A stretch of DNA of 64,000 nt. Source: a bacterium (GTDB lineage Bacteria > JAAXHH01). Within the stretch, counting starts at the first letter, position 1. Each line of letters opens with the position of its first letter. Shown here piece after piece: positions 1-64,000 of the stretch. The stretch is from assembly GCA_965117045.1 (NCBI GenBank), contig OZ220749.1, positions 1,896,105 through 1,960,104 on the forward strand, given 5' to 3'. The notes below the pieces were generated by a model, which ran no database searches, had not been told where the DNA came from, and was given only the letters and a program-made list of their open reading frames with translations. The translations under genes and the position numbers were made by a program.

Positions 1-743
1 CAAGTGCTTCGAACGAAAGCGTTCGTGCCGAAGGAGAATGGTTTCTCCAGAATTCGGTAACCGCAAAGGTGAATACACCAGACCCAAGAGATGGTTTGCG
101 GCCACGAACGAACCTTAGACCATGTTGGTCTTCACGAGACCTGATTAAACCGAGTTCTGTGAGTGGTGATTCCAGACTATCCTCGTGGCTGGCATTGCCT
201 TTCGGTCCGTGGGCAACATAGGTTCGTACAAAACACGCTACGTCGTTCTTGATCGTAGCCTGCGAAGCCCTGGACCATCCACGGTCATTGGCGAGCGCTG
301 AGATGTTTCTTACAAAAATGTCGCGATGAAAGGTAAGTGCAGGATAGTAGTTGAACGCCCAATACCAGGATGTCTTAGCCGGATGACTGCATAGTTTCCA
401 GTGAATCAACCAAGATGTATTTGGGTTTTCCATATAGGGGTCTAAGCCATCAGTGTCATCGAACAATACGTTCCCGAATGATGTAGTGATCGGCTGACCT
501 GATTTTTCTTCAATTATACTCGCAGCATTCGCCCAATGCCGCATTGAGGCGACCATGTTTTTTCCAACACCGAATCGAGCGATAGCGTCATCTGCCGAAA
601 ACACCGATACATCGTCTCCGGTGCTCTCGGCAAATTTAACGGCGTCGTAGGCTTTCTTGAGCCAGCCGTACCGTAGCGGGAACGTTTCGTGCCCGGAAAG
701 TTGTGGTCTATAAGTGTCATCGTAGAGCGGGCCTCTGTTCATT
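1..743 (-). CDS. DUF4007-family protein (SspB-like; family linked to DNA phosphorothioation modules). About 247 N-terminal codons are present; the C-terminus lies left of the window.
   Basis: My own minus-strand translation from the ATG at 743-741 reads MNRGPLYDDTYRPQLSGHETFPLRYGWLKKAYDAVKFAES...ARFGVGKNMVASMRHWANAASIIEE...NTSWLIHWKLCSHPAKTSWYWAFNYY... It stays open to position 1 with no stop, so it is missing from the supplied ORF track. The GHETFPLRYGWLKK and GVGKNMV motifs match my memory of the DUF4007 (PF13182) consensus. Confidence 0.6.
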
Positions 744-823
744 TGTATCTTTCAAAAGAGAGAATTCGATCTGGCCTACCACACAACCTTTAGGGACCGA
801 ATTCGTGAGCGGAATGTCGCGAA

Positions 824-852
824 TTGACAATACATATGTGTTGTAGTATAGT
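824..852 (+). promoter_or_regulatory. Near-consensus sigma-70 promoter upstream of the cysteine desulfurase
   Basis: TTGACA (824-829), 17-nt spacer, TATAGT (847-852). About 100 nt upstream of the ATG at 957, in the AT-rich divergent intergenic region. Confidence 0.6.
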
Positions 853-956
853 AGGTATTATACACTGTCGATTTACTTGGACAATCTAATTCCGAATCGA
901 ATCTCCATAAAGTGAAGTTTTGTCGGTTTGTTGCTGAATCATCGTAGTAATCTGGC

Positions 957-2129
957 ATGCAAAACTCAGACACCATATACACAGACTACCAGGCAACCAC
1001 CCCGGTAGACCCACGGGTCTTGGAACGGATGGCCCCTTTTTGGGGGGAATCCTTTGGAAACCCCCACTCAAGTGACCATGCCGTCGGTTGGCACGCGGAG
1101 AGTGCAGTCCGAGAAGCGGCCGGGACCATTGCGACAATGATTGGTTCCGATGACGACGAAATCACCTTTACCTCAGGTGCGACGGAAGCGAACAACCTGG
1201 CACTCCTGGGATTGGCACGCCACACTACCGGTACGCGTCGACGAATCCTAGTCAGTGAGATAGAGCACAAGTGTGTTTTAGGTGCCGCCAGAGAACTGTC
1301 CACGAATGAGGGTATTATTGTTGAGACCATTTCGGTCGACAGTGATGGATATCTCGACCTCTCTGAATTGAAGGCACGCATCGCAGAAGATGTTCTTCTT
1401 GTTTCTGTGATGGCAGTCAATAATGAAGTGGGGACAATACAGGACATTCAGTCAATCTCCGAAATAGTCAAATCGTACGGTGCTCTTTTTCACTGCGATG
1501 CCGCACAGGCGCCCTGTGCCATGAACTTAGAGGACCTATCCAACTTCGCTGATCTCATCAGCCTCTCCAGTCATAAGATGTACGGACCTCAAGGTATTGG
1601 GGCTCTCTTTATTCGTCGTGGCGTACATGATCGCATTGAACCCTTGTTTTATGGCGGAGGGCAACAAGATGGCCTGCGATCCGGAACAGTTCCATTACCT
1701 CTTTGTGTCGGCATGGCTGCGGCATCAGAGATTATCGTCGCCGATGGAGAGGAAGAACGAATTCGGATTGCTTGCCAACGGGATCTATTCATCGCACTGC
1801 TGAAAGAAGCTGATCTTCACATTGAGATTAACGGGCCTGTGACCGGCCACCGACATCCAGGCAACGCCAACATTCGCTTTGATGGATTCGACGCCCGTGA
1901 CATCATTGCCTCATTACAGCCCAAACTGGCCGCGTCTACTGGCGCTGCCTGTTCTTCGGGGATTCCCGAACCGTCCCATGTACTTCGAGCTCTCGGCTTG
2001 ACCGCTGAACAAAGCGACGCCTCCATCAGGTTTAGTTTCGGACGTTTCACAACCGATTACGAAATAGAGAAGGCTACTGAAATGGTCGGAAATGCCCTTA
2101 CGAATCTTGCAATTGTCCACGCTTCCTAA
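957..2129 (+). CDS. Cysteine desulfurase, class V aminotransferase (NifS/IscS/DndA/SspA-like)
   Basis: 390 aa. PLP-lysine motif SSHKMYGPQG and active-site Cys loop STGAACSSG. N-terminus YTDYQATTPVDPRV is typical of IscS/NifS. Codon usage and GC are clearly lower than the rest of the window. Confidence 0.9.
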   Translation: MQNSDTIYTDYQATTPVDPRVLERMAPFWGESFGNPHSSDHAVGWHAESAVREAAGTIATMIGSDDDEITFTSGATEANNLALLGLARHTTGTRRRILVSEIEHKCVLGAARELSTNEGIIVETISVDSDGYLDLSELKARIAEDVLLVSVMAVNNEVGTIQDIQSISEIVKSYGALFHCDAAQAPCAMNLEDLSNFADLISLSSHKMYGPQGIGALFIRRGVHDRIEPLFYGGGQQDGLRSGTVPLPLCVGMAAASEIIVADGEEERIRIACQRDLFIALLKEADLHIEINGPVTGHRHPGNANIRFDGFDARDIIASLQPKLAASTGAACSSGIPEPSHVLRALGLTAEQSDASIRFSFGRFTTDYEIEKATEMVGNALTNLAIVHAS

Positions 2130-2149
2130 CTTCGAAGTAGCCGAAGCCC

Positions 2150-2857
2150 TCACTTCCCAAACGCATACCGGAACGTCACCCACAGGATCTTCACACCCGC
2201 CCGGACCGCGCCGGACAGCGTGCCCGTAATCTTCGAAATCCCGACCCGGCGCCGGTAACTGACCGGCACGTCGAGCGTCCGGTATCCCTGCTGCGCCGCC
2301 TTGATCTGCATCTCGACCGTCCAGCCGAAGTCCTTGTCCGCCATTTCCAGCGCGAGCAGCCGGTCGTAGCGTATGGCCCGGAAGGGTCCCAGGTCGGTGT
2401 ATCGATGGCCGTAGAGCCACCGGATGATCCGCGGTACGAGGACGTTCCCGATGACGGCCTGGACCGGCATGGAGCCCGGCGCGCGGCGGCCCAGCATCCG
2501 CGAGCCGATCACCAGGTCGCACCCGTCCTCCACGATCGGCCGCACCAGGTCCGCCATCTCTTCCGGGTAGTCGCTGAAGTCGCCGTCCAGGAACACGATG
2601 ATGTCCGGATCGAACCGGGCGGCCTCGGCTATGCCCCGCAGGCAGGCCGCCCCGTACCCGCGCCGGGGCTCCCGCACGACGACCGCGCCGCCCTCCGCGG
2701 CCACGGCTGCCGTCCAGTCCGTCGACCCGTTGTCCACCACGATGACGGCCGCGGCCATCCCCGCCGGGATATGCGCCAGGACCGGCCCGATCGAATCCTC
2801 TTCGTTCAGGACCGGAATGATGACCACGATGTTCCGACCGTCCGCCGACCGCGCCAT
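2150..2857 (-). CDS. Glycosyltransferase family 2
   Basis: 235 aa. VVIIPVLNEEDSIGPVL...VVDNGSTD...FLDGDFSD (DxD) is the characteristic GT-A/GT2 fold signature. High GC3. Confidence 0.85.
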   Translation of the reverse strand: MARSADGRNIVVIIPVLNEEDSIGPVLAHIPAGMAAAVIVVDNGSTDWTAAVAAEGGAVVVREPRRGYGAACLRGIAEAARFDPDIIVFLDGDFSDYPEEMADLVRPIVEDGCDLVIGSRMLGRRAPGSMPVQAVIGNVLVPRIIRWLYGHRYTDLGPFRAIRYDRLLALEMADKDFGWTVEMQIKAAQQGYRTLDVPVSYRRRVGISKITGTLSGAVRAGVKILWVTFRYAFGK

Positions 2858-2941
2858 ATCTGGCCCCGCAAAATCCCTTTCGATCCGTGTTTATCGTGGT
2901 TTCCGGCGGTTCCCGCCCGCCGTACATAGTGTATAATTCGC

Positions 2942-2969
2942 TTGACAAGCCCCCTACATATACTAATAT
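2942..2969 (+). promoter_or_regulatory. Putative sigma-70 promoter for smc
   Basis: TTGACA (2942-2947), 16-nt spacer, TAATAT (2964-2969), in an AT-rich patch between the divergent GT2 and smc genes. Confidence 0.5.
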
Positions 2970-3062
2970 ATCCCCTTAACAGTCTCCTGAAACCCATTTT
3001 CAACCCGATCTGACTTTACCGTATTTCAAAAAGGCCGATTTCGCCATCAGGATCCGTGTCCG

Positions 3063-16305: not shown

Positions 16306-16692
16306 CGTCCAAGCCGACCGTAAGCCGAGTTCTGTGCCTTCGCGATGAAGGTGGCGATCATCTATCTGGGACGGCTGTCGCCAGCCGCCTCGTGCGACCT
16401 TACCCGAGAGTCTCCGGTTTCCCGGCGGTCGAGACGGGCCGTCTCTCCTCTCCTATTCGGTCTTGCACCAGATGGGGTTTGTCCTGCCGGACCGGTTACC
16501 CGGACCGCGGTGAGCTCTTACCTCGCCATTTCACCTTTGCCTCCCCGAAGGGATCGGCCGTGTGTTTTCTGTGACACTTTCCGTGGCATCACTGCCCCCT
16601 GCCGTTAGCAGGCATCCCGCCCTGCGGTGCTCGGACTTTCCTCGTCCGCCTTGCTTAGCGAACGCGATCGCCTGGTCGACTTGGGACGTTTC
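16306..16692 (-). ncRNA. rnpB: RNase P RNA, bacterial type A
   Basis: The reverse complement reads ...CAAGTCGACCAGGCGATCGCG...GAGGAAAGTCCGAGCACCGCAGGGCGGGATGCCTGCTAACGGCAGGGGG...GGTAAGAGCTCACCGC...ACAGAACTCGGCTTACGGTCGGCTTGG. This contains the universal GGAAAGTCCG, GTAAGAGC and ACAGAAC-CGGCTTA blocks, with P1 pairing between the two ends. End coordinates are approximate (+/- 10 nt). Confidence 0.9.
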
Positions 16693-58019: not shown

Positions 58020-59363
58020 TCAGGATGGTTCGGTGGTATTCGATTCATCGAACAGGCCGAAGGTGGCCGGCGCTTCCTCGCGCCGTTTCCCCCGGGCGGC
58101 GGTTCCGGAGGTCTCCGCCCCGTCATGCAGGTGCTCGACCCGGCAGAACGCTTCGCCCTTGCGCAGGCGTACGTTCACGCGGTCGTCGACGCTGAGTTCA
58201 TCGGCGTCGCGGACGATGCGCCCGTCCGACGCGCGCTGGCAGACGGCGTAGCCCCGTTCCAGGACCGAGAGCGGGCTGAGGGCCTGGAGCCGTCCGGCCA
58301 GTCCGCCGACCAGCTGGGCGCGTGTTTCGTGGTCGTGGAAGCACCGGTCGGCCAGGCGGCGGGTCAGTTCATCGGTGAACTGGGCGTACTGGCCGATCTG
58401 GTCGACGGGCCGCCTGAGTCCGTAACTGGTCAGCGCCGTTGCGACGCGCTGGCGGGACAGGTCCAGGTACCCGGTCATGCTGCCGCACAGCCTTCTCAAC
58501 ACGGCCTCCGACCGCTCCTTCAACTCCCGCAGGTCGCGGACGACGATTTCGGCCGCGCCCGACGGCGTGGGGGCCCGCAGATCGGCCGCGAAGTCGGTCA
58601 GCGTGTAGTCCGTTTCGTGTCCCACGGCCGAGACCACCGGGATTCGGGACTGGAACACCGCCCGGACCACCGCCTCTTCGTTGAACGCCCACAGGTCCTC
58701 TGCCGATCCGCCGCCACGGCCGACGATCAGCACGTCCACCGCGCCGTAGTCGTTCATCTCTTCGATGGCGGCCGCGATCTCGGCCGCGGCGCCTTCGCCC
58801 TGCACGGGTGCCGGCCGGAGAATGATCGAGACCCACGGCGCGCGCCGGCGCAGGACCTGGATGATATCCCGGATCGCGGCGCCGGACCCGGAGGTGACCA
58901 CGCCCACCCGCTCCGGGAAGGAAGGCAGTGCCTGCTTGTGTTCCTCGCGGAACAGGCCCTCTTTCTCGAGCCGGGCCTTGAGCCGCTCGAAAGCCGCCTG
59001 GAGCGCGCCCGCGCCCACGGGCTTCAATTGCCGGGCAACGAGCTGGTACTGTCCCTGCACGTCGTAGACGGAAAGGGCGCCCAGGGCCAGCACCTCCATG
59101 CCGTCTTCGGGTTCGAAAGTCAACTTGCTGTTCGCCGATCGCCACATGACGCAGCGCAACTGGCTGCGGTCGTCCTTCAGCGAGAAGTAGGCATGGCCGG
59201 ACGAGTGCCGCTTGTAGTTGGAGATTTCACCGGATACCGTAACGTAGGGGAACGCTTCTTCGAGGAGCGTCTTGATCCCCGCGGTCAGTTCGGTAACGGT
59301 CAGCACGCCGTTGTCGCCCTCGTTCACCAAGCCTGGCCTTCCTCCCCGGTCTGAGCCGGCCAT
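58020..59363 (-). CDS. xseA: Exodeoxyribonuclease VII large subunit
   Basis: 447 aa. LTVTELTAGIKTLLEEAFPYVTVSGEISNYKRHSSGHAYFSLKD (OB fold) and the catalytic core IIVGRGGGSAEDLWAFN. Confidence 0.93.
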   Translation of the reverse strand: MAGSDRGGRPGLVNEGDNGVLTVTELTAGIKTLLEEAFPYVTVSGEISNYKRHSSGHAYFSLKDDRSQLRCVMWRSANSKLTFEPEDGMEVLALGALSVYDVQGQYQLVARQLKPVGAGALQAAFERLKARLEKEGLFREEHKQALPSFPERVGVVTSGSGAAIRDIIQVLRRRAPWVSIILRPAPVQGEGAAAEIAAAIEEMNDYGAVDVLIVGRGGGSAEDLWAFNEEAVVRAVFQSRIPVVSAVGHETDYTLTDFAADLRAPTPSGAAEIVVRDLRELKERSEAVLRRLCGSMTGYLDLSRQRVATALTSYGLRRPVDQIGQYAQFTDELTRRLADRCFHDHETRAQLVGGLAGRLQALSPLSVLERGYAVCQRASDGRIVRDADELSVDDRVNVRLRKGEAFCRVEHLHDGAETSGTAARGKRREEAPATFGLFDESNTTEPS

Positions 59364-59367
59364 ATCG

Positions 59368-60945
59368 CTACCGGGCGATTTCGACCGCGCGGGTCTGCCG
59401 GATGACCGTCACCTTGACCTGGCCCGGGTATTCCATCCGGGCCTGGATTTTACGGGCGATTTCCGTGGCGAGCTGGACCGCGCGGAGGTCGTCGACTTCC
59501 TCGTGATCGATCATGACCCGCACTTCTTTCCCCGCCTTCATGACGAAGGCCCTGGATACGCCTTCGAAGGAACTCACCAGCCGTTCCATCTCCCGGAGCC
59601 GGCGGACGTACTTCTCCAGCGGTTCCCGGAGCGCGCCGGGTCTGGACATGGACAGCGCGTCGGCGGTTCGGACCACCACGGCCATGGGGCTGACTTCTTC
59701 CAGGTTCTCGTGGATGGCGTCTATGCATTCCAGCACTTCGTGCGGTTCGCCGTACTTCCCGGCGGCCGATCTTCCCAGTTCCCCGAGCGCGCCTTCCGGG
59801 CCGCCTTCCACGGCCTTGCCTATGTCGTGCAGCAGTCCGCAGCGCCGGGCCAGGGTCACGTCCAGGTCCAGCTCCTGCGCCATGATACCCGCCAGCTCAG
59901 CCACTTCGCGGCTATGATGCAGCGCGTTCTGCCCACCGGTCATGCGGTACTTCAGTTGCCCGAGCAGCATGGCCAGTTCGGAACGGACGCCGGTAATGCC
60001 CAGGTCGAAGAGCACCTGTTCACCCGTATCCTGGATCAGGTCGCCGATTTCCTCCTGGGTTTTGGAGACGACCTGTTCGATGAATCCGGGATGGATTCTC
60101 CCGTCCTGGATGAGCTTCTCCATGGAGAGCTTAGCGATTTCGCGGCGCATGGGGTTGAACCCGGAGAGGACGACGGCATTGGGGGTGTCGTCGACGATGA
60201 CGTCGATCCCCGTCGACATTTCGAACGCCTGGATGTTGCGTCCGTCGCGCCCGATGATGCGTCCCTTCATTTCATTATCGGGCAGGGATATGACCGACGT
60301 CGTCGTTTCCGTCACGTGATCCAGCGTGTACTTCTGCATCGCGTGCGTGATGATTTCCCGGGCTTCGACCTCCGCGTTCTGGCGGGCTTCTTCGATGATG
60401 CTGCGGGCTTGCTGGCCGGCTTCAGCGCGTATGCGGGCGTCGATGTTGCTGAGCAGCGACTTTCTCGCTTCCTCCGTCGTCATGCCGGCGGACTGCTCGA
60501 GTTGTTCCGTCTGCCGCTTGATCAGCTGATCCAGGCGCTCTTCGGATTCCACCAGCTTCTCGTCCCGCTCCTGCAGCGACTGGAGGTGCTTCTGAATGCC
60601 TTTTTCGCGCTTGGCCACGTAGTCGGCCTTGCGCTCCAGGTTCTGCTCCCTGATCGCGATCCGTTTTTCGACGCGCTGGAAGTCCTGGCGGGTCTGGTTG
60701 CTTTCTCGCTCGAATTTCGCCTTGGCCTGGTAGGATTCCTCCTCCATTTCGATCCGGGCCGTATTCTTTATCGTGTCAGCTTCTTCCACCGCCTCTGCGA
60801 GGATGCTCTCTGCCAAGCGCTCCATACTGTCCGTCTTACGTTTTTCGACACGCTTTCGAATGTACCATCCGAAGAGAAACATGATCAGGGCGGTGCCGGC
60901 GTGGAGACTGATCGTCACAAGCATAGTGGCAGCCACCTTCTTCAA
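59368..60945 (-). CDS. rny: Ribonuclease Y
   Basis: 525 aa. N-terminal TM, coiled coil, KH domain (GRIIGRDGRNIQAFE) and HD domain (LLHDIGKA). Confidence 0.95.
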   Translation of the reverse strand: MKKVAATMLVTISLHAGTALIMFLFGWYIRKRVEKRKTDSMERLAESILAEAVEEADTIKNTARIEMEEESYQAKAKFERESNQTRQDFQRVEKRIAIREQNLERKADYVAKREKGIQKHLQSLQERDEKLVESEERLDQLIKRQTEQLEQSAGMTTEEARKSLLSNIDARIRAEAGQQARSIIEEARQNAEVEAREIITHAMQKYTLDHVTETTTSVISLPDNEMKGRIIGRDGRNIQAFEMSTGIDVIVDDTPNAVVLSGFNPMRREIAKLSMEKLIQDGRIHPGFIEQVVSKTQEEIGDLIQDTGEQVLFDLGITGVRSELAMLLGQLKYRMTGGQNALHHSREVAELAGIMAQELDLDVTLARRCGLLHDIGKAVEGGPEGALGELGRSAAGKYGEPHEVLECIDAIHENLEEVSPMAVVVRTADALSMSRPGALREPLEKYVRRLREMERLVSSFEGVSRAFVMKAGKEVRVMIDHEEVDDLRAVQLATEIARKIQARMEYPGQVKVTVIRQTRAVEIAR

Positions 60946-60986
60946 TTATTACGGGTGTTCCGGACATGGTCCGTTCCTCAACAAGA

Positions 60987-61328
60987 TCAGGCATGGTCTG
61001 CTTTCTCTTCATCCTGTTCAGGAAGAGGGTTTTCCAGCAACTCGTCCATGCGCCGGATCATCTCAGCGATCCGTTCTTTATGCACGGACTCCGATTCGAC
61101 CTGGGTCTGCTGTTTTTCACGTTCCTTGTGCAGTTCGTCGGCGATCCTGATCGCAGTGAGGACCGCCACGCTGGTGAGGGACTGCATGGTCACGCTGACG
61201 GGTACCTCGCGCATGCGTTCGTCGACATAGGCGGCGATGCGCTGGATGTACTCAGCTTCCTCTTCCGCCTGGATCGGATATTCGGTCCCGCAGATGTTGA
61301 CGCGTACGGTGACTTTCTCGTCATCCAT
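60987..61328 (-). CDS. zapA: Cell division protein ZapA
   Basis: 113 aa. VRVNICGTEYPIQAEEEAEYIQRIAAYVDERM...AVLTAIRIADELHK. Confidence 0.85.
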   Translation of the reverse strand: MDDEKVTVRVNICGTEYPIQAEEEAEYIQRIAAYVDERMREVPVSVTMQSLTSVAVLTAIRIADELHKEREKQQTQVESESVHKERIAEMIRRMDELLENPLPEQDEEKADHA

Positions 61329-61422
61329 AAAGGGTCCATCCCGGTGAGCAATCGGCCTGGAAACGCATGCCGGACGCCAGGCGAACTGCGGCGGACAAAA
61401 CAGGGACTGATCCGGACTGATC

Positions 61423-61686
61423 TTACTCGATGACGTCCAGGCGCGACAGCATCGTGTCTATGCGTGCCTTGATGTCGTCCTGCTTGACGCGCAACGCCTG
61501 GTTTTCCTGTTCCAGTTCTTCTTTCGAGGTAACCGACTGCTCCTGCTGCTGCTGCAGTTCCTGAATCTGCGTCTCGAGGTTCTGGTTCCGGCCCCGCAGA
61601 TCCGCGTTCTCGTCCTTCAGCTGCTGGATCAGGTCGATCATTGTTTCGATCCGGCCCAGCAGCAGCTCGATGGATTGTTCTTGCAT
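61423..61686 (-). CDS. Coiled-coil protein, ZapB-like / DUF904-like
   Basis: 87 aa, entirely heptad-rich (LIQQLKDENADLRGRNQNLETQIQELQ). Sits in the conserved position next to zapA. Confidence 0.6.
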   Translation of the reverse strand: MQEQSIELLLGRIETMIDLIQQLKDENADLRGRNQNLETQIQELQQQQEQSVTSKEELEQENQALRVKQDDIKARIDTMLSRLDVIE

Positions 61687-61728
61687 GAATCCCTCCGCAA
61701 AGGTGTATTCCTTCGCGCCTCGACGACG

Positions 61729-64000
61729 CTAGGAGCGAAGTTCCGCCCGGTACCGGCTCACCAGCCGGCGCAGCACCTTGTCCTGAAGCCGCGTGACTTC
61801 AGCGTCCGTCAGCGTCCGTTCTCCGGACCTGAACCGCATGGCGTACGCCATGCTCTTGCTCTGGGCCGCGATCTGCGTCCCCCGGTAGACGTCGAACAGT
61901 TCGACCGCTTCCAGGAGATCACCGCTACACGCGCGGATTTCTTTCAGTATGTCCCGATGAGTAACCTCTTCGGGCACGACAATGGCCAGGTCTCTCTCGA
62001 CCGCGGGGAACTTGGGCGGCGCGCGATAGGTCCTTCGATCGGACGCCTGGCCGAAGAGGACACCGCAGTCGATTACCCCCATCCATACGGGTTCCCGGAT
62101 CTCGTAACGGCCGAGGACCCGTTGCGCCACCGCGCCGATTCGGCCCGCCCGCACCCCGTCCGCGAGCAGTTCGCCGGTCCGGTCGGCGTCGAACAATGGA
62201 TCGACTTTATCATACGAGACGGTTTCGACCCTGTCAAGTCCTAACCGGCCGAGCAAAGCTTCCGCCAGACCCTTCAAATCGAATAAATCGAAAGCCTCCT
62301 GAGGGCCGTCCCAGTGCGGGCTGTGGCGCTGCCCAGTGACGGCGATACAGAGTTGTTCGGGTTCGTCGGGAAGGCCTTCTTCTTTCGCCCAGAACACGCG
62401 CCCGGCCTCGAAGATCCGGATGTCCCGCACCTTGCGATTGGCGTTCCAGCGCACGACGCCCAGTACGGAGGCCGCCAGGCTCGTGCGCATGGCGGAGAGT
62501 TCGGGGCTCAGGGGATTGTCGATCATGACGCTGGGACGGGACGGATCGATGAGCCGGTTCAGGTCCGGGTGCAGGAGACTGTGGGTGACCACCTCCGTGA
62601 AGCCGAACCCGGTCATCGCGTCGCGCAGGCGCCGCTGGTCGTCCTGCTTGCCGCGGCGGGCCTCCTCCCGTTCCCGGGCTTCAGCCGAATCGTCGCGGGC
62701 CGGCGCAGAAGCCGCCGGTTCGATCTTGTCGTAGCCATAGAGACGGGCGACCTCCTCGATCAGGTCCACTTCGCGGAACACGTCCCGCCGGAACGACGGC
62801 GCGACGACCTCGAGGTCCACGTCGTCGGGCCGCACGTCGAACCGCAACCGGCGCAGCAGCGCGGCGATCTCGTCGCGGTCCAGGCCGGTGCCCAGCAGTC
62901 CGTTCACGCGGCTCAAGCGCAACCGGATCACCGGGTCGGGCACGGCCGGGGTCCGGACGTCGATCATGCCTTTCGCCACCACCCCCCCGGCCACATCGGC
63001 AATCAGTCCCGCGGCCCGGGCTACGGCCTCGCCCTGAAGTTCCGGGTCCATGCCCCGCTCGAACCGGCGCGACGCGTCCGTCTGCAGCTGCAGCGCCTTC
63101 GAACCCCGCCGCACCCGCACCGCGTCGAAACAGGCGCCTTCCAGGAAGACCCGGTCGGTCTCCGGGGTGATCTCGGTATCCAGTCCGCCCATTACGCCGC
63201 CGACGCCGATGCCCGTTTCGTGGTCGGCGATCATCAACACCTCGCCGTCGAGGGTACGATCCACCCCGTCCAGGGTGGTGAAGGCCTCCTCCTCCCCGGC
63301 GCGGCGGACGACGATGCCCCGGCCCGCCAGCCGGTCCAGGTCGTAGGCGTGCAGCGGCTGTCCCATTTCGAGCATGACGTAGTTCGTCACGTCGACCACG
63401 TTGCTGATGGACCGGATCCCGGCGGCTTCGATCCGCCGCTTCAGCCAGTCCGGCGAAGGTCCGATGCGGACGCCGGTGATCACGCGGCCCACGAACCGGG
63501 GGCAGTCATCGGGGGCGTCGACGCGGACGCTGGCCAGGGTGTCGACGGGAGGACCCGTTTCATCGACGACGCCGGGGGGCATGCGCAATTCGCCACCCGA
63601 CAGGGCGGTGATCTCCCGGGCCACGCCGACCAGCGAGAGGCAGTCGGGGCGGTTGGTGCCCACGTCGATGCTCAGCACCGTTTCCGGTCCGCCCACGATG
63701 TCCTTCAGGGGCCGTCCGGGCTCGATTCCGGCTTCGAGCACCATGATGCCTTCGTGATCGTCGGACAGGTTCAGTTCGGCCTCGGAGCAGATCATCCCGA
63801 AGGACTCCACCCCGCGGATCTTCGCTTTCCGGATCTCCATCCCGCCGGGCAGCGTCGCGCCGACCCGCGCGACCGGCACCTTCTGGCCGGCGGCCACGTT
63901 CGGCGCCCCGCAGATGACCTGCAGGGACTCGCCGCCCACGTCCACAGTGCAGAGTGAGAGCCGGTCGGCGTTGGGATGGCGGTCCACGCGTTCCACGTGT
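61729..64000 (-). CDS. pheT: Phenylalanine--tRNA ligase beta subunit (N-terminus beyond the window end)
   Basis: tRNA-binding domain HPNADRLSLCTVDVGG, then B3/4, B5 and FDX-ACB C-terminal domains. The reading frame stays open to position 64000. Confidence 0.95.
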   Translation of the reverse strand, partial: HVERVDRHPNADRLSLCTVDVGGESLQVICGAPNVAAGQKVPVARVGATLPGGMEIRKAKIRGVESFGMICSEAELNLSDDHEGIMVLEAGIEPGRPLKDIVGGPETVLSIDVGTNRPDCLSLVGVAREITALSGGELRMPPGVVDETGPPVDTLASVRVDAPDDCPRFVGRVITGVRIGPSPDWLKRRIEAAGIRSISNVVDVTNYVMLEMGQPLHAYDLDRLAGRGIVVRRAGEEEAFTTLDGVDRTLDGEVLMIADHETGIGVGGVMGGLDTEITPETDRVFLEGACFDAVRVRRGSKALQLQTDASRRFERGMDPELQGEAVARAAGLIADVAGGVVAKGMIDVRTPAVPDPVIRLRLSRVNGLLGTGLDRDEIAALLRRLRFDVRPDDVDLEVVAPSFRRDVFREVDLIEEVARLYGYDKIEPAASAPARDDSAEAREREEARRGKQDDQRRLRDAMTGFGFTEVVTHSLLHPDLNRLIDPSRPSVMIDNPLSPELSAMRTSLAASVLGVVRWNANRKVRDIRIFEAGRVFWAKEEGLPDEPEQLCIAVTGQRHSPHWDGPQEAFDLFDLKGLAEALLGRLGLDRVETVSYDKVDPLFDADRTGELLADGVRAGRIGAVAQRVLGRYEIREPVWMGVIDCGVLFGQASDRRTYRAPPKFPAVERDLAIVVPEEVTHRDILKEIRACSGDLLEAVELFDVYRGTQIAAQSKSMAYAMRFRSGERTLTDAEVTRLQDKVLRRLVSRYRAELRS

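Follow-up and report, generated by a model that had tools for sequence, protein, structure and literature searches.

The 64,000-nt stretch of contig OZ220749.1 analyzed here (hereafter, the window) very probably opens inside the right-hand end of a laterally acquired island for SspABCD-type single-strand DNA phosphorothioation (PT), an island whose portion inside the window covers positions 1–2138 and which is flanked in its Gemmatimonadota chromosome by genes for a glycosyltransferase and a rhodanese. Four parts of it are seen directly: an intact cysteine desulfurase gene, sspA; the first 247 codons of sspB on the opposite strand; the control region that the two genes have in common; and the exact junction between island and host. 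Judging from related strains, the whole island would measure ∼13–14 kb, with sspC, sspD, and at least one effector gene expected immediately to the left of the window. By the same analogy, the likeliest effector is a set of helicase, GHKL ATPase, and PLD nuclease, the alternative being a PbeABCD-like set together with SspE. An earlier, sequence-only reading of the window had proposed a horizontally acquired Ssp-type island with its remaining genes to the left; our analyses support the proposal, with sspC and sspD read from relatives rather than from the window itself, and none of the outcomes listed there as refuting it was observed.

The insertion site and the island boundary

Relatives of the locus, numbered with the prefix L, were reached through homologues of the flanking family-2 glycosyltransferase (GT2) and of SspB, through the rhodanese flank, and by a scan with the core of the putative promoter region; the named members of the clusters place the host in Gemmatimonadota. 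In three loci of the same lineage, L085, L086, and L087, the GT2 gene is followed by 10 bp, a convergent rhodanese gene, and then housekeeping genes, with no ssp genes present. The strains concerned are close to ours, with SMC proteins 99%, 99%, and 94% identical to that of the window and GT2 proteins 96%, 95%, and 90% identical. Because near-identical strains have the GT2/rhodanese site empty, window 1–2138 belongs to an insertion into this gap. The site is filled in the window, L081, L083, L084, L090/L088, and L092, and the gap is a variable hotspot that is either empty or occupied by the same modification genes with differing effector sets. One of the filled sites, L084, is a 9.4-kb contig of the same strain from another sample; its GT2 is 100% identical to that of the window, and the contig ends inside sspA.

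The boundary itself was obtained from a nucleotide alignment of the junction. Homology between the window and the empty-site loci L085 and L086 extends 11 nt beyond the GT2 stop and ends there, which places the boundary between island and host at 2138|2139, 9 nt past the sspA stop. The terminal 9 nt of the island, CTTCGAAGT, occupy 2130–2138, and the 11 nt at 2139–2149 (reverse complement, GGGCTTCGGCT) are host DNA common to the island-free strains. The adjoining GT2 gene (2150–2857, minus strand; 235 aa; Glycos_transf_2, E=7.3e-19) is retained at 90–96% identity in those strains; it is the conserved flank of the hotspot and lies outside the island.

Base composition changes at the same place. 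The G+C content is 0.500 over 1–2149 and 0.643 over 2150–64000, and the former value lies ∼6.8 standard deviations (SDs) under the mean of the 299 other windows of 2149 nt (mean, 0.642; SD, 0.021; minimum, 0.587). At third codon positions (GC3), the sspB fragment and sspA have values of 0.494 and 0.504, against 0.903 for GT2, 0.862 for SMC, and 0.797 for CoaE. A maximum-likelihood change point has a support interval of 2116–2202, with a log-likelihood gain of 85.7, and the interval takes in the junction at 2138|2139. Its unusual base composition, and its location at a fixed site between conserved flanks that is filled in some strains and empty in others, mark the segment as part of a genomic island. 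The sequence-only reading had noted the AT-richness of the first ∼2.1 kb, counted 27 G+C among the 60 positions of 781–840, put the switch into the 20-nt gap between the sspA stop (2129) and the convergent GT2 stop (2150), and called for a G+C profile as a check; the count is exact, and the profile has its discontinuity where it was predicted.

The two genes of the window

The truncated gene runs on the minus strand from an ATG at 742–740 to the window edge (2–742), and its frame is open for 247 codons; it begins MNRGPLYDDTYRPQLSGHETFPLRYGWLKK and includes GVGKNMV. The earlier reading had given this frame as 743 to 1: the 247 open codons and the GVGKNMV motif stand, while the true frame is 742 to 2, as reading from 743 meets stop codons. 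Its identification of the product as a DUF4007 protein of the SspB family is borne out by three comparisons. The fragment matches Pfam DUF4007 with E=6.7e-71 over profile positions 1–228 of 288; ten SspB models of PADLOC match it, the best being PDLC02769 (E=8.8e-85); and among solved structures in the Protein Data Bank (PDB), SspB (6JUF/6LB9) is the sole match (E=1e-26), with a full-length relative reaching E=2.4e-34 against the solved SspB structure. On this sequence evidence, the truncated protein is clearly an SspB, and a stand-alone one over the first 247 of its ∼312 residues. The closest full-length relatives are 310–312 aa long and 92–93% identical to the fragment, and therefore ∼65 sspB codons should follow past the window edge.

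The other gene (957–2129, plus strand) encodes an intact 390-aa class-V cysteine desulfurase dependent on pyridoxal phosphate (PLP), with an Aminotran_5 match of E=3.4e-73. The motifs SSHK, with the PLP lysine (Lys207), GAACSSG, with the catalytic cysteine (Cys332), HCDAAQ, and IRFSFGR are all found, and the locus is thus equipped with a dedicated desulfurase carrying both the PLP lysine and the catalytic cysteine. The label DndA/SspA-like given to it earlier proves apt, PADLOC scoring it at 426.9 bits as SspA and 416.4 bits as DndA. With the NCBIfam models, the protein reaches 382.3 bits for IscS TIGR02006 (cut-off, 643.2), 375.6 for NF010611 (548), and 351 for DndA TIGR03235 (480), and the NifS cut-off is likewise not reached; in the PDB, it scores 315 bits with IscS/NFS1 and only 195.5 bits with Vibrio SspA. 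By sequence alone, the type of desulfurase—SspA, DndA, or IscS—is not separable, and the assignment to sspA rests on context: the gene stands divergent beside sspB in 82 of 83 related loci, has an island-like GC3, and is missing from the empty-site strains. Neither a second desulfurase nor further Ssp, Pbe, or SspE homologues were found in the 64-kb window.

The rest of the island in related strains

What lies beyond sspB can be read in the relatives. L083, a 4.2-Mb contig, has the full CoaE-SMC-GT2-sspA-sspB order of the window, and the 98-kb contig L081 has SMC, GT2, sspA, and sspB in the same sequence, except that SMC and GT2 are separated there by an additional 5-kb insert. The gene after sspB encodes, in either contig, a protein of 1,129 aa, with a score of 1256.8 bits for the PADLOC model of SspC and 383.5 bits for that of BrxC; next comes a gene for a 280-aa protein with the fold of 3′-phosphoadenosine 5′-phosphosulfate (PAPS) reductase, scoring 452.8 bits as SspD, 36.2 as BrxP, and 23.4 as DndC. 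SspC scores are 1250–1257 bits across the hotspot relatives, and the SspD matches have E=1.3e-136 in L081 and E=1.8e-135 in L090; in the wider set of 83 related loci, SspC is encoded in 82 and SspD in 81. The sequence-only reading had proposed a search of the left flank for Ssp partners or, alternatively, isc housekeeping genes; carried out in the relatives, the search gives SspC, SspD, and PT-linked effectors.

The genes after sspD vary. In L081, SspC and SspD are followed by a helicase, a GHKL ATPase, and a PLD protein. L090/L091, when joined to L088, gives a complete island of 14,291 bp and 46% G+C that terminates at the rhodanese gene; its order is sspA, sspB, sspC, sspD, PbeA (644.6 bits), a 76-aa open reading frame (ORF), PbeC (170.8 bits), a 152-aa ORF, and SspE (710.2 bits). 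The Pbe-like set, of 703, 76, 708, and 152 aa (L090:15061–20027 with L088:11204–13510), comes directly after sspD. A second complete island, L092, was found by scanning metagenomes with the 27-nt promoter core and represents another strain, 77–85% identical at the nucleotide level; its order is rhodanese, DndB-family protein, 160-aa ORF, PLD, GHKL ATPase, helicase, sspD, sspC, sspB, sspA, and GT2.

Some features of these relatives deserve a note of their own. The DndB-family protein of L092 (424 aa; PF14072, E=2.1e-34; DGQHR motif) and the 160-aa ORF beside it lie at L092:832–2585 on the minus strand. DndB is a regulator in Dnd systems. The 160-aa ORF has no Pfam match, and its stretch YVGKTERTLRERF is one that we take to resemble a GIY-YIG motif. 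The 14.2-kb contig carrying this island (L001/L092; MPMU01000094.1 = MKWU01005279.1) is deposited in the metagenome-assembled genome "Gammaproteobacteria bacterium bin55." Its ends are a Gemmatimonadota-type GT2 (85% identical) and a rhodanese (87%), nearly all the rest of it is island, with 48% G+C, and it looks mis-binned. In L083, the region after sspD (L083:16771–18653) holds fragments of a helicase (90 aa) and of ParB_N, along with a Transposase_mut gene, a picture of decay. The sspA of L082 falls into two ORFs (L082:89–1260); this contig has 4x coverage, and the split may be a sequencing error.

Effector partners of sspBCD

To place these differences in context, the surroundings of sspBCD, out to 10 kb, were surveyed for effectors in 80 loci of the SspB clade. 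A helicase with a GHKL ATPase, usually accompanied by PLD, is the most common partner, with 28 loci; PbeA with PbeC occurs in 14 and SspE in 9, while none of these is in view in 30. PbeABCD-like pairing with Ssp thus appears to be common in the clade. The set of superfamily-2 (SF2) helicase, GHKL (HATPase_c_3), and PLD genes, found at L081:15243–19576, L082:6768–11234, and L092:2846–7111, gives weak PADLOC matches (PbeA core, 80 bits; MzaB, 55 bits; ZacB or DrmC for the PLD protein), and it is not among the named families of PADLOC 2.0.0. The effector genes of L081, L082, and L092 have no match to the SspE, SspF, SspG, or SspH profiles, and literature searches linking the trio, or GHKL or MORC ATPases, to Ssp returned nothing relevant, as did searches linking Gemmatimonadota and sponges to PT. 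We regard the trio as a candidate for an uncharacterized PT-linked effector; in one relative, L092, it has the DndB-family protein and the 160-aa ORF for company.

A more specific proposal can be built on these observations. The unseen part of the island might carry the helicase-GHKL-PLD set and neither SspE nor SspFGH; the set would then be a restriction module of a new kind that depends on PT and is akin to PbeABCD in a split, GHKL-driven form. In the subclade of the window, moreover, the palindromic operator described below might have been replaced by face-to-face promoters. We put this forward tentatively, as possible and somewhat on the doubtful side.

The control region and a conserved palindrome

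Between the two genes lies an intergenic control region of 214 bp (743–956) with 39% G+C. It contains two promoter-like sites, both of them putative promoters by their sequence: TTGACA-17-TATAGT facing sspA (824–852, plus strand; 11 of 12 matches) and TTGTCC-16-TATAAT facing sspB (857–884, minus strand; 10 of 12). The first is the near-consensus promoter pointed out in the earlier reading; the second, at 884 to 857, was overlooked there. In the five loci of the subclade, a spacer core of ∼70 bp is nearly invariant, and the spacer flanks diverge. The −35 hexamer of the sspA-facing site is invariant in all five, with an A+T-rich −10 region carrying a 2-nt indel, and the TATAAT of the sspB-facing site is invariant in all five as well. 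The predicted arrangement is one in which sspA and sspBCD would be transcribed from two near-consensus promoters set face to face. With 4 bp between the predicted −10 boxes, and with each promoter directed across the other, RNA polymerase is unlikely to occupy both at once.

The divergent layout had been described in the sequence-only reading as unusual for these systems, and this is not borne out: in 82 of the 83 loci of the SspB clade, spread over many phyla, sspA immediately precedes sspB-sspC and is read the other way, with sspD also present in 81. In the literature, sspBCD is described as a three-gene operon, with sspA adjacent, located elsewhere, or replaced by iscS (PMC12914056).

In more distant loci (L002–L080; e.g., L046 and L036), the sspA-sspB spacer carries a different signal. 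A 17-bp palindrome, CTGGAnGnnnCnTCCAG, recurs across phyla in one or two copies in 67 of 83 spacers, with 99 copies in total against 0.9 expected from shuffles, and when strict matches were sought in 1.58 Mb, 71 of 74 fell within the sspA-sspB spacer; the palindrome was not found ahead of the effector genes that were checked. The proximal copy stops a median of 12 nt ahead of the sspB start codon. One copy comes directly after a TTGACn-17-TAnnGT promoter, and the other is upstream of the −35 box. CCA is present on both strands. That the arms show invariance and not covariation speaks for an operator bound by a protein more than for an RNA hairpin, and we regard the palindrome as a likely protein operator. 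The window subclade is without it: a search of 743–956 for CTGGA-N7-TCCAG gave no hit, and the inverted repeats of the window spacer are limited to short palindromes rich in A+T, for example ACAATACATAT/ATATGTGTTGT at 827–844. The subclade lacking the palindromic operator includes L092, with its DndB-family gene.

Proposed mechanism

If the island works as its characterized counterparts do, SspA, by way of PLP (Lys207) and Cys332, would draw persulfide sulfur from L-cysteine and hand it to SspD, a presumed PAPS-reductase-fold ATP pyrophosphatase; SspA is reported to make persulfide from cysteine and to form a complex with SspD (PMC7188994). SspB, as a DNA-binding triple winged-helix protein, and SspC, as an Orc/Cdc6-type ATPase, would choose the sites, which are 5′-CCA-3′ in model systems, and the phosphorothioate would be set into one strand there. 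These roles follow the published descriptions of SspB as a triple winged helix-turn-helix protein and SspC as an Orc/Cdc6 AAA+ ATPase (PMC10853773) and of SspABCD as yielding 5′-CpsCA-3′, with nicking by SspB essential for single-strand PT (PMC8092258). A neighboring effector would then read the PT mark and tell host DNA from phage DNA.

Alternative explanations

The island could be a modification-only, or "solitary," SspABCD locus, in which the PT mark serves an epigenetic or redox role, has no restriction partner, and does not act in defense. In its favor, SspE, Pbe, and helicase-GHKL partners are all missing from the 10-kb surroundings of 30 of the 80 surveyed loci, and in a published survey of 2,678 sspBCD modules, only 7.3% were paired with sspFGH and 7.4% with sspE (PMC8092258). 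On the other hand, all four hotspot relatives that can be read past sspD (L081, L083, L090/L088, and L092) have a partner module or, in L083, its remnants, and the closest SspB alleles, at 92–93% identity, adjoin the helicase-GHKL-PLD trio. We therefore hold a solitary locus to be unlikely here.

Another possibility is a decayed remnant, with the rest of the Ssp island deleted or inactivated and phosphorothioation lost as a consequence. Decay does occur among relatives, as indicated by the helicase fragment and transposase of L083 and, unless it is a sequencing error, by the split sspA of L082, and strains that are nearly identical differ by gain and loss of the ssp locus. Against this, both frames in the window and the catalytic motifs of SspA are intact, the promoter core is conserved, and sspB-sspC-sspD is intact in every hotspot relative in which it is visible; a remnant is in our judgment quite improbable.

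Two further explanations were rejected. In BREX type 4, DUF4007 forms a fusion with the PAPS reductase BrxP, and it also occurs in a HerA-centered, BREX-related system (PMC12839542; PMC12914056), and the SspC-like proteins of the relatives do match BrxC with 383.5 bits; that the window gene belongs to BREX type 4 or to a BREX-related HerA/FtsK system is nevertheless hardly credible, as DUF4007 begins at residue 15 of a protein that has its own predicted promoter and no N-terminal PAPS-reductase domain, the neighbors in relatives score far higher as SspC and SspD than as BrxC and BrxP, and no PglZ, BrxL, or HerA gene was called in either of the two complete islands of relatives. Nor do we see any real likelihood that a housekeeping IscS/NifS gene, suggested by the best sequence matches of the desulfurase to IscS/NFS1, came by chance to lie in an AT-rich stretch beside a DUF4007 gene with which it has nothing to do, because the gene is absent from L085–L087, including strains with a 99% identical SMC, has a GC3 of 0.504, like sspB and unlike the host, scores 382 bits for IscS against a cut-off of 643, and is paired with sspB in 82 of 83 loci from many phyla.

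Several observations weigh against an intact, laterally acquired Ssp island. The presence and integrity of sspC, sspD, and an effector in the genome of the window are read by analogy from relatives, among which decay is seen (L083 and L082). SspA resembles IscS/NFS1 more than it does Vibrio SspA and stays under the IscS, DndA, and NifS cut-offs. The junctions of the complete L091+L088 island have neither an integrase nor flanking direct repeats; the window has no tRNA gene that could have served as a target, and L083 is the only one of the islands with a transposase. Identities of the island roughly track those of the host (SspB, 92% in L081, 83–84% in L090, and 78–80% in L083; SMC, 95%, 89%, and 76%), which fits an old acquisition followed by losses. 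Yet the GC3 of the island has stayed at ∼0.50, with no drift toward the host value of ∼0.86. Repeated exchange of alleles through the conserved flanks is an alternative to an old acquisition and subsequent losses.

Comparison with known systems

The closest counterpart of the locus is SspABCD-SspE as described from Vibrio cyclitrophicus FF75, Escherichia coli 3234/A, and Streptomyces (PMC8092258; PMC9646914), which likewise combines a stand-alone DUF4007 SspB with an adjacent dedicated desulfurase; in the hotspot relatives, the likeness extends to the SspC and SspD genes that come next and, in one of them, to a full-length SspE (710 bits). The window differs in that its SspA is nearer to IscS/NFS1 than to Vibrio SspA, its host is an uncultured Gemmatimonadota bacterium, and the effector varies among strains at the same site, SspE being found in only 9 of 80 related loci.

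PbeABCD was described with DndCDEA in Haloterrigena jeotgali (PMC6459918). The four-gene set of the relative L090/L088, which lies outside the window, matches PbeA and PbeC, and its 152-aa gene equals the published PbeD in size; unlike the published system, it is paired with Ssp rather than Dnd genes. The helicase of the helicase-GHKL-PLD trio also has a weak match to the PbeA helicase core (80 bits), but the trio has PLD as a separate gene and a GHKL ATPase in place of the SMC-like PbeC.

With DndABCDE, the locus has in common the mobilization of sulfur by a cysteine desulfurase and a PAPS-reductase-fold enzyme, the similar PADLOC scores of its desulfurase as DndA and SspA (416.4 and 426.9 bits), and the DndB-family protein of the L092 island. 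It differs in having no DndC, DndD, or DndE: SspD of the relatives reaches only 23.4 bits with DndC, and the desulfurase scores 351 bits with TIGR03235 against the cut-off of 480. BREX type 4 (BrxP, BrxC, PglZ, and BrxL) has homologous modules in DUF4007, the PAPS reductase, and the BrxC/SspC-type ATPase, but DUF4007 is unfused here, and the two complete islands of relatives have neither PglZ nor BrxL, so that the locus does not qualify as BREX type 4. A housekeeping IscS, finally, would be expected to pass the equivalog cut-offs, which our protein does not, and the gene is absent from L085–L087.

Other features of the window

The GT2-SMC spacer is a second variable spot, one gene away from the hotspot. 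In L081, it holds the 5-kb insert mentioned above (L081:2637–7671, corresponding to window ∼2858–3062), which encodes an N6 DNA methyltransferase, a GHKL ATPase, a 217-aa unknown protein, and a metallo-beta-lactamase-fold protein; the window is without this insert. In the window, the spacer is 205 bp long with ∼51% G+C and contains a promoter-like TTGACA-16-TAATAT (2942–2969, plus strand; 10 of 12 matches) upstream of smc. A class A RNase P RNA at 16306–16683 (minus strand; RF00010, 276.4 bits) is the sole Rfam match in the window. A second island was considered at ∼59300–62300, where G+C falls to 58–61%, and rejected: the region consists of the RNase Y gene (59368–60945, minus strand) and its upstream region. 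The RNase Y gene adjoins that for the large subunit of exonuclease VII, and both are ordinary housekeeping genes.

Significance

Taken alone, the window calls for an ordinary annotation, the edge of an Ssp phosphorothioation island in a Gemmatimonadota genome; the system is of a well-known kind, here in an uncultured bacterium of that phylum. Two leads come from the related loci rather than from the window, the palindromic operator candidate and the helicase-GHKL-PLD partner. The palindrome could give a first handle on how the ssp operon is regulated, and its replacement by face-to-face promoters in the subclade of the window, if true, would imply a different mode of control. The insertion site, for its part, offers a natural comparison: the same 10-bp gap is empty in strains with a 99% identical SMC and is occupied elsewhere by SspABCD with varied effectors, and such variation at one hotspot is well suited to asking which effectors work with Ssp marks.

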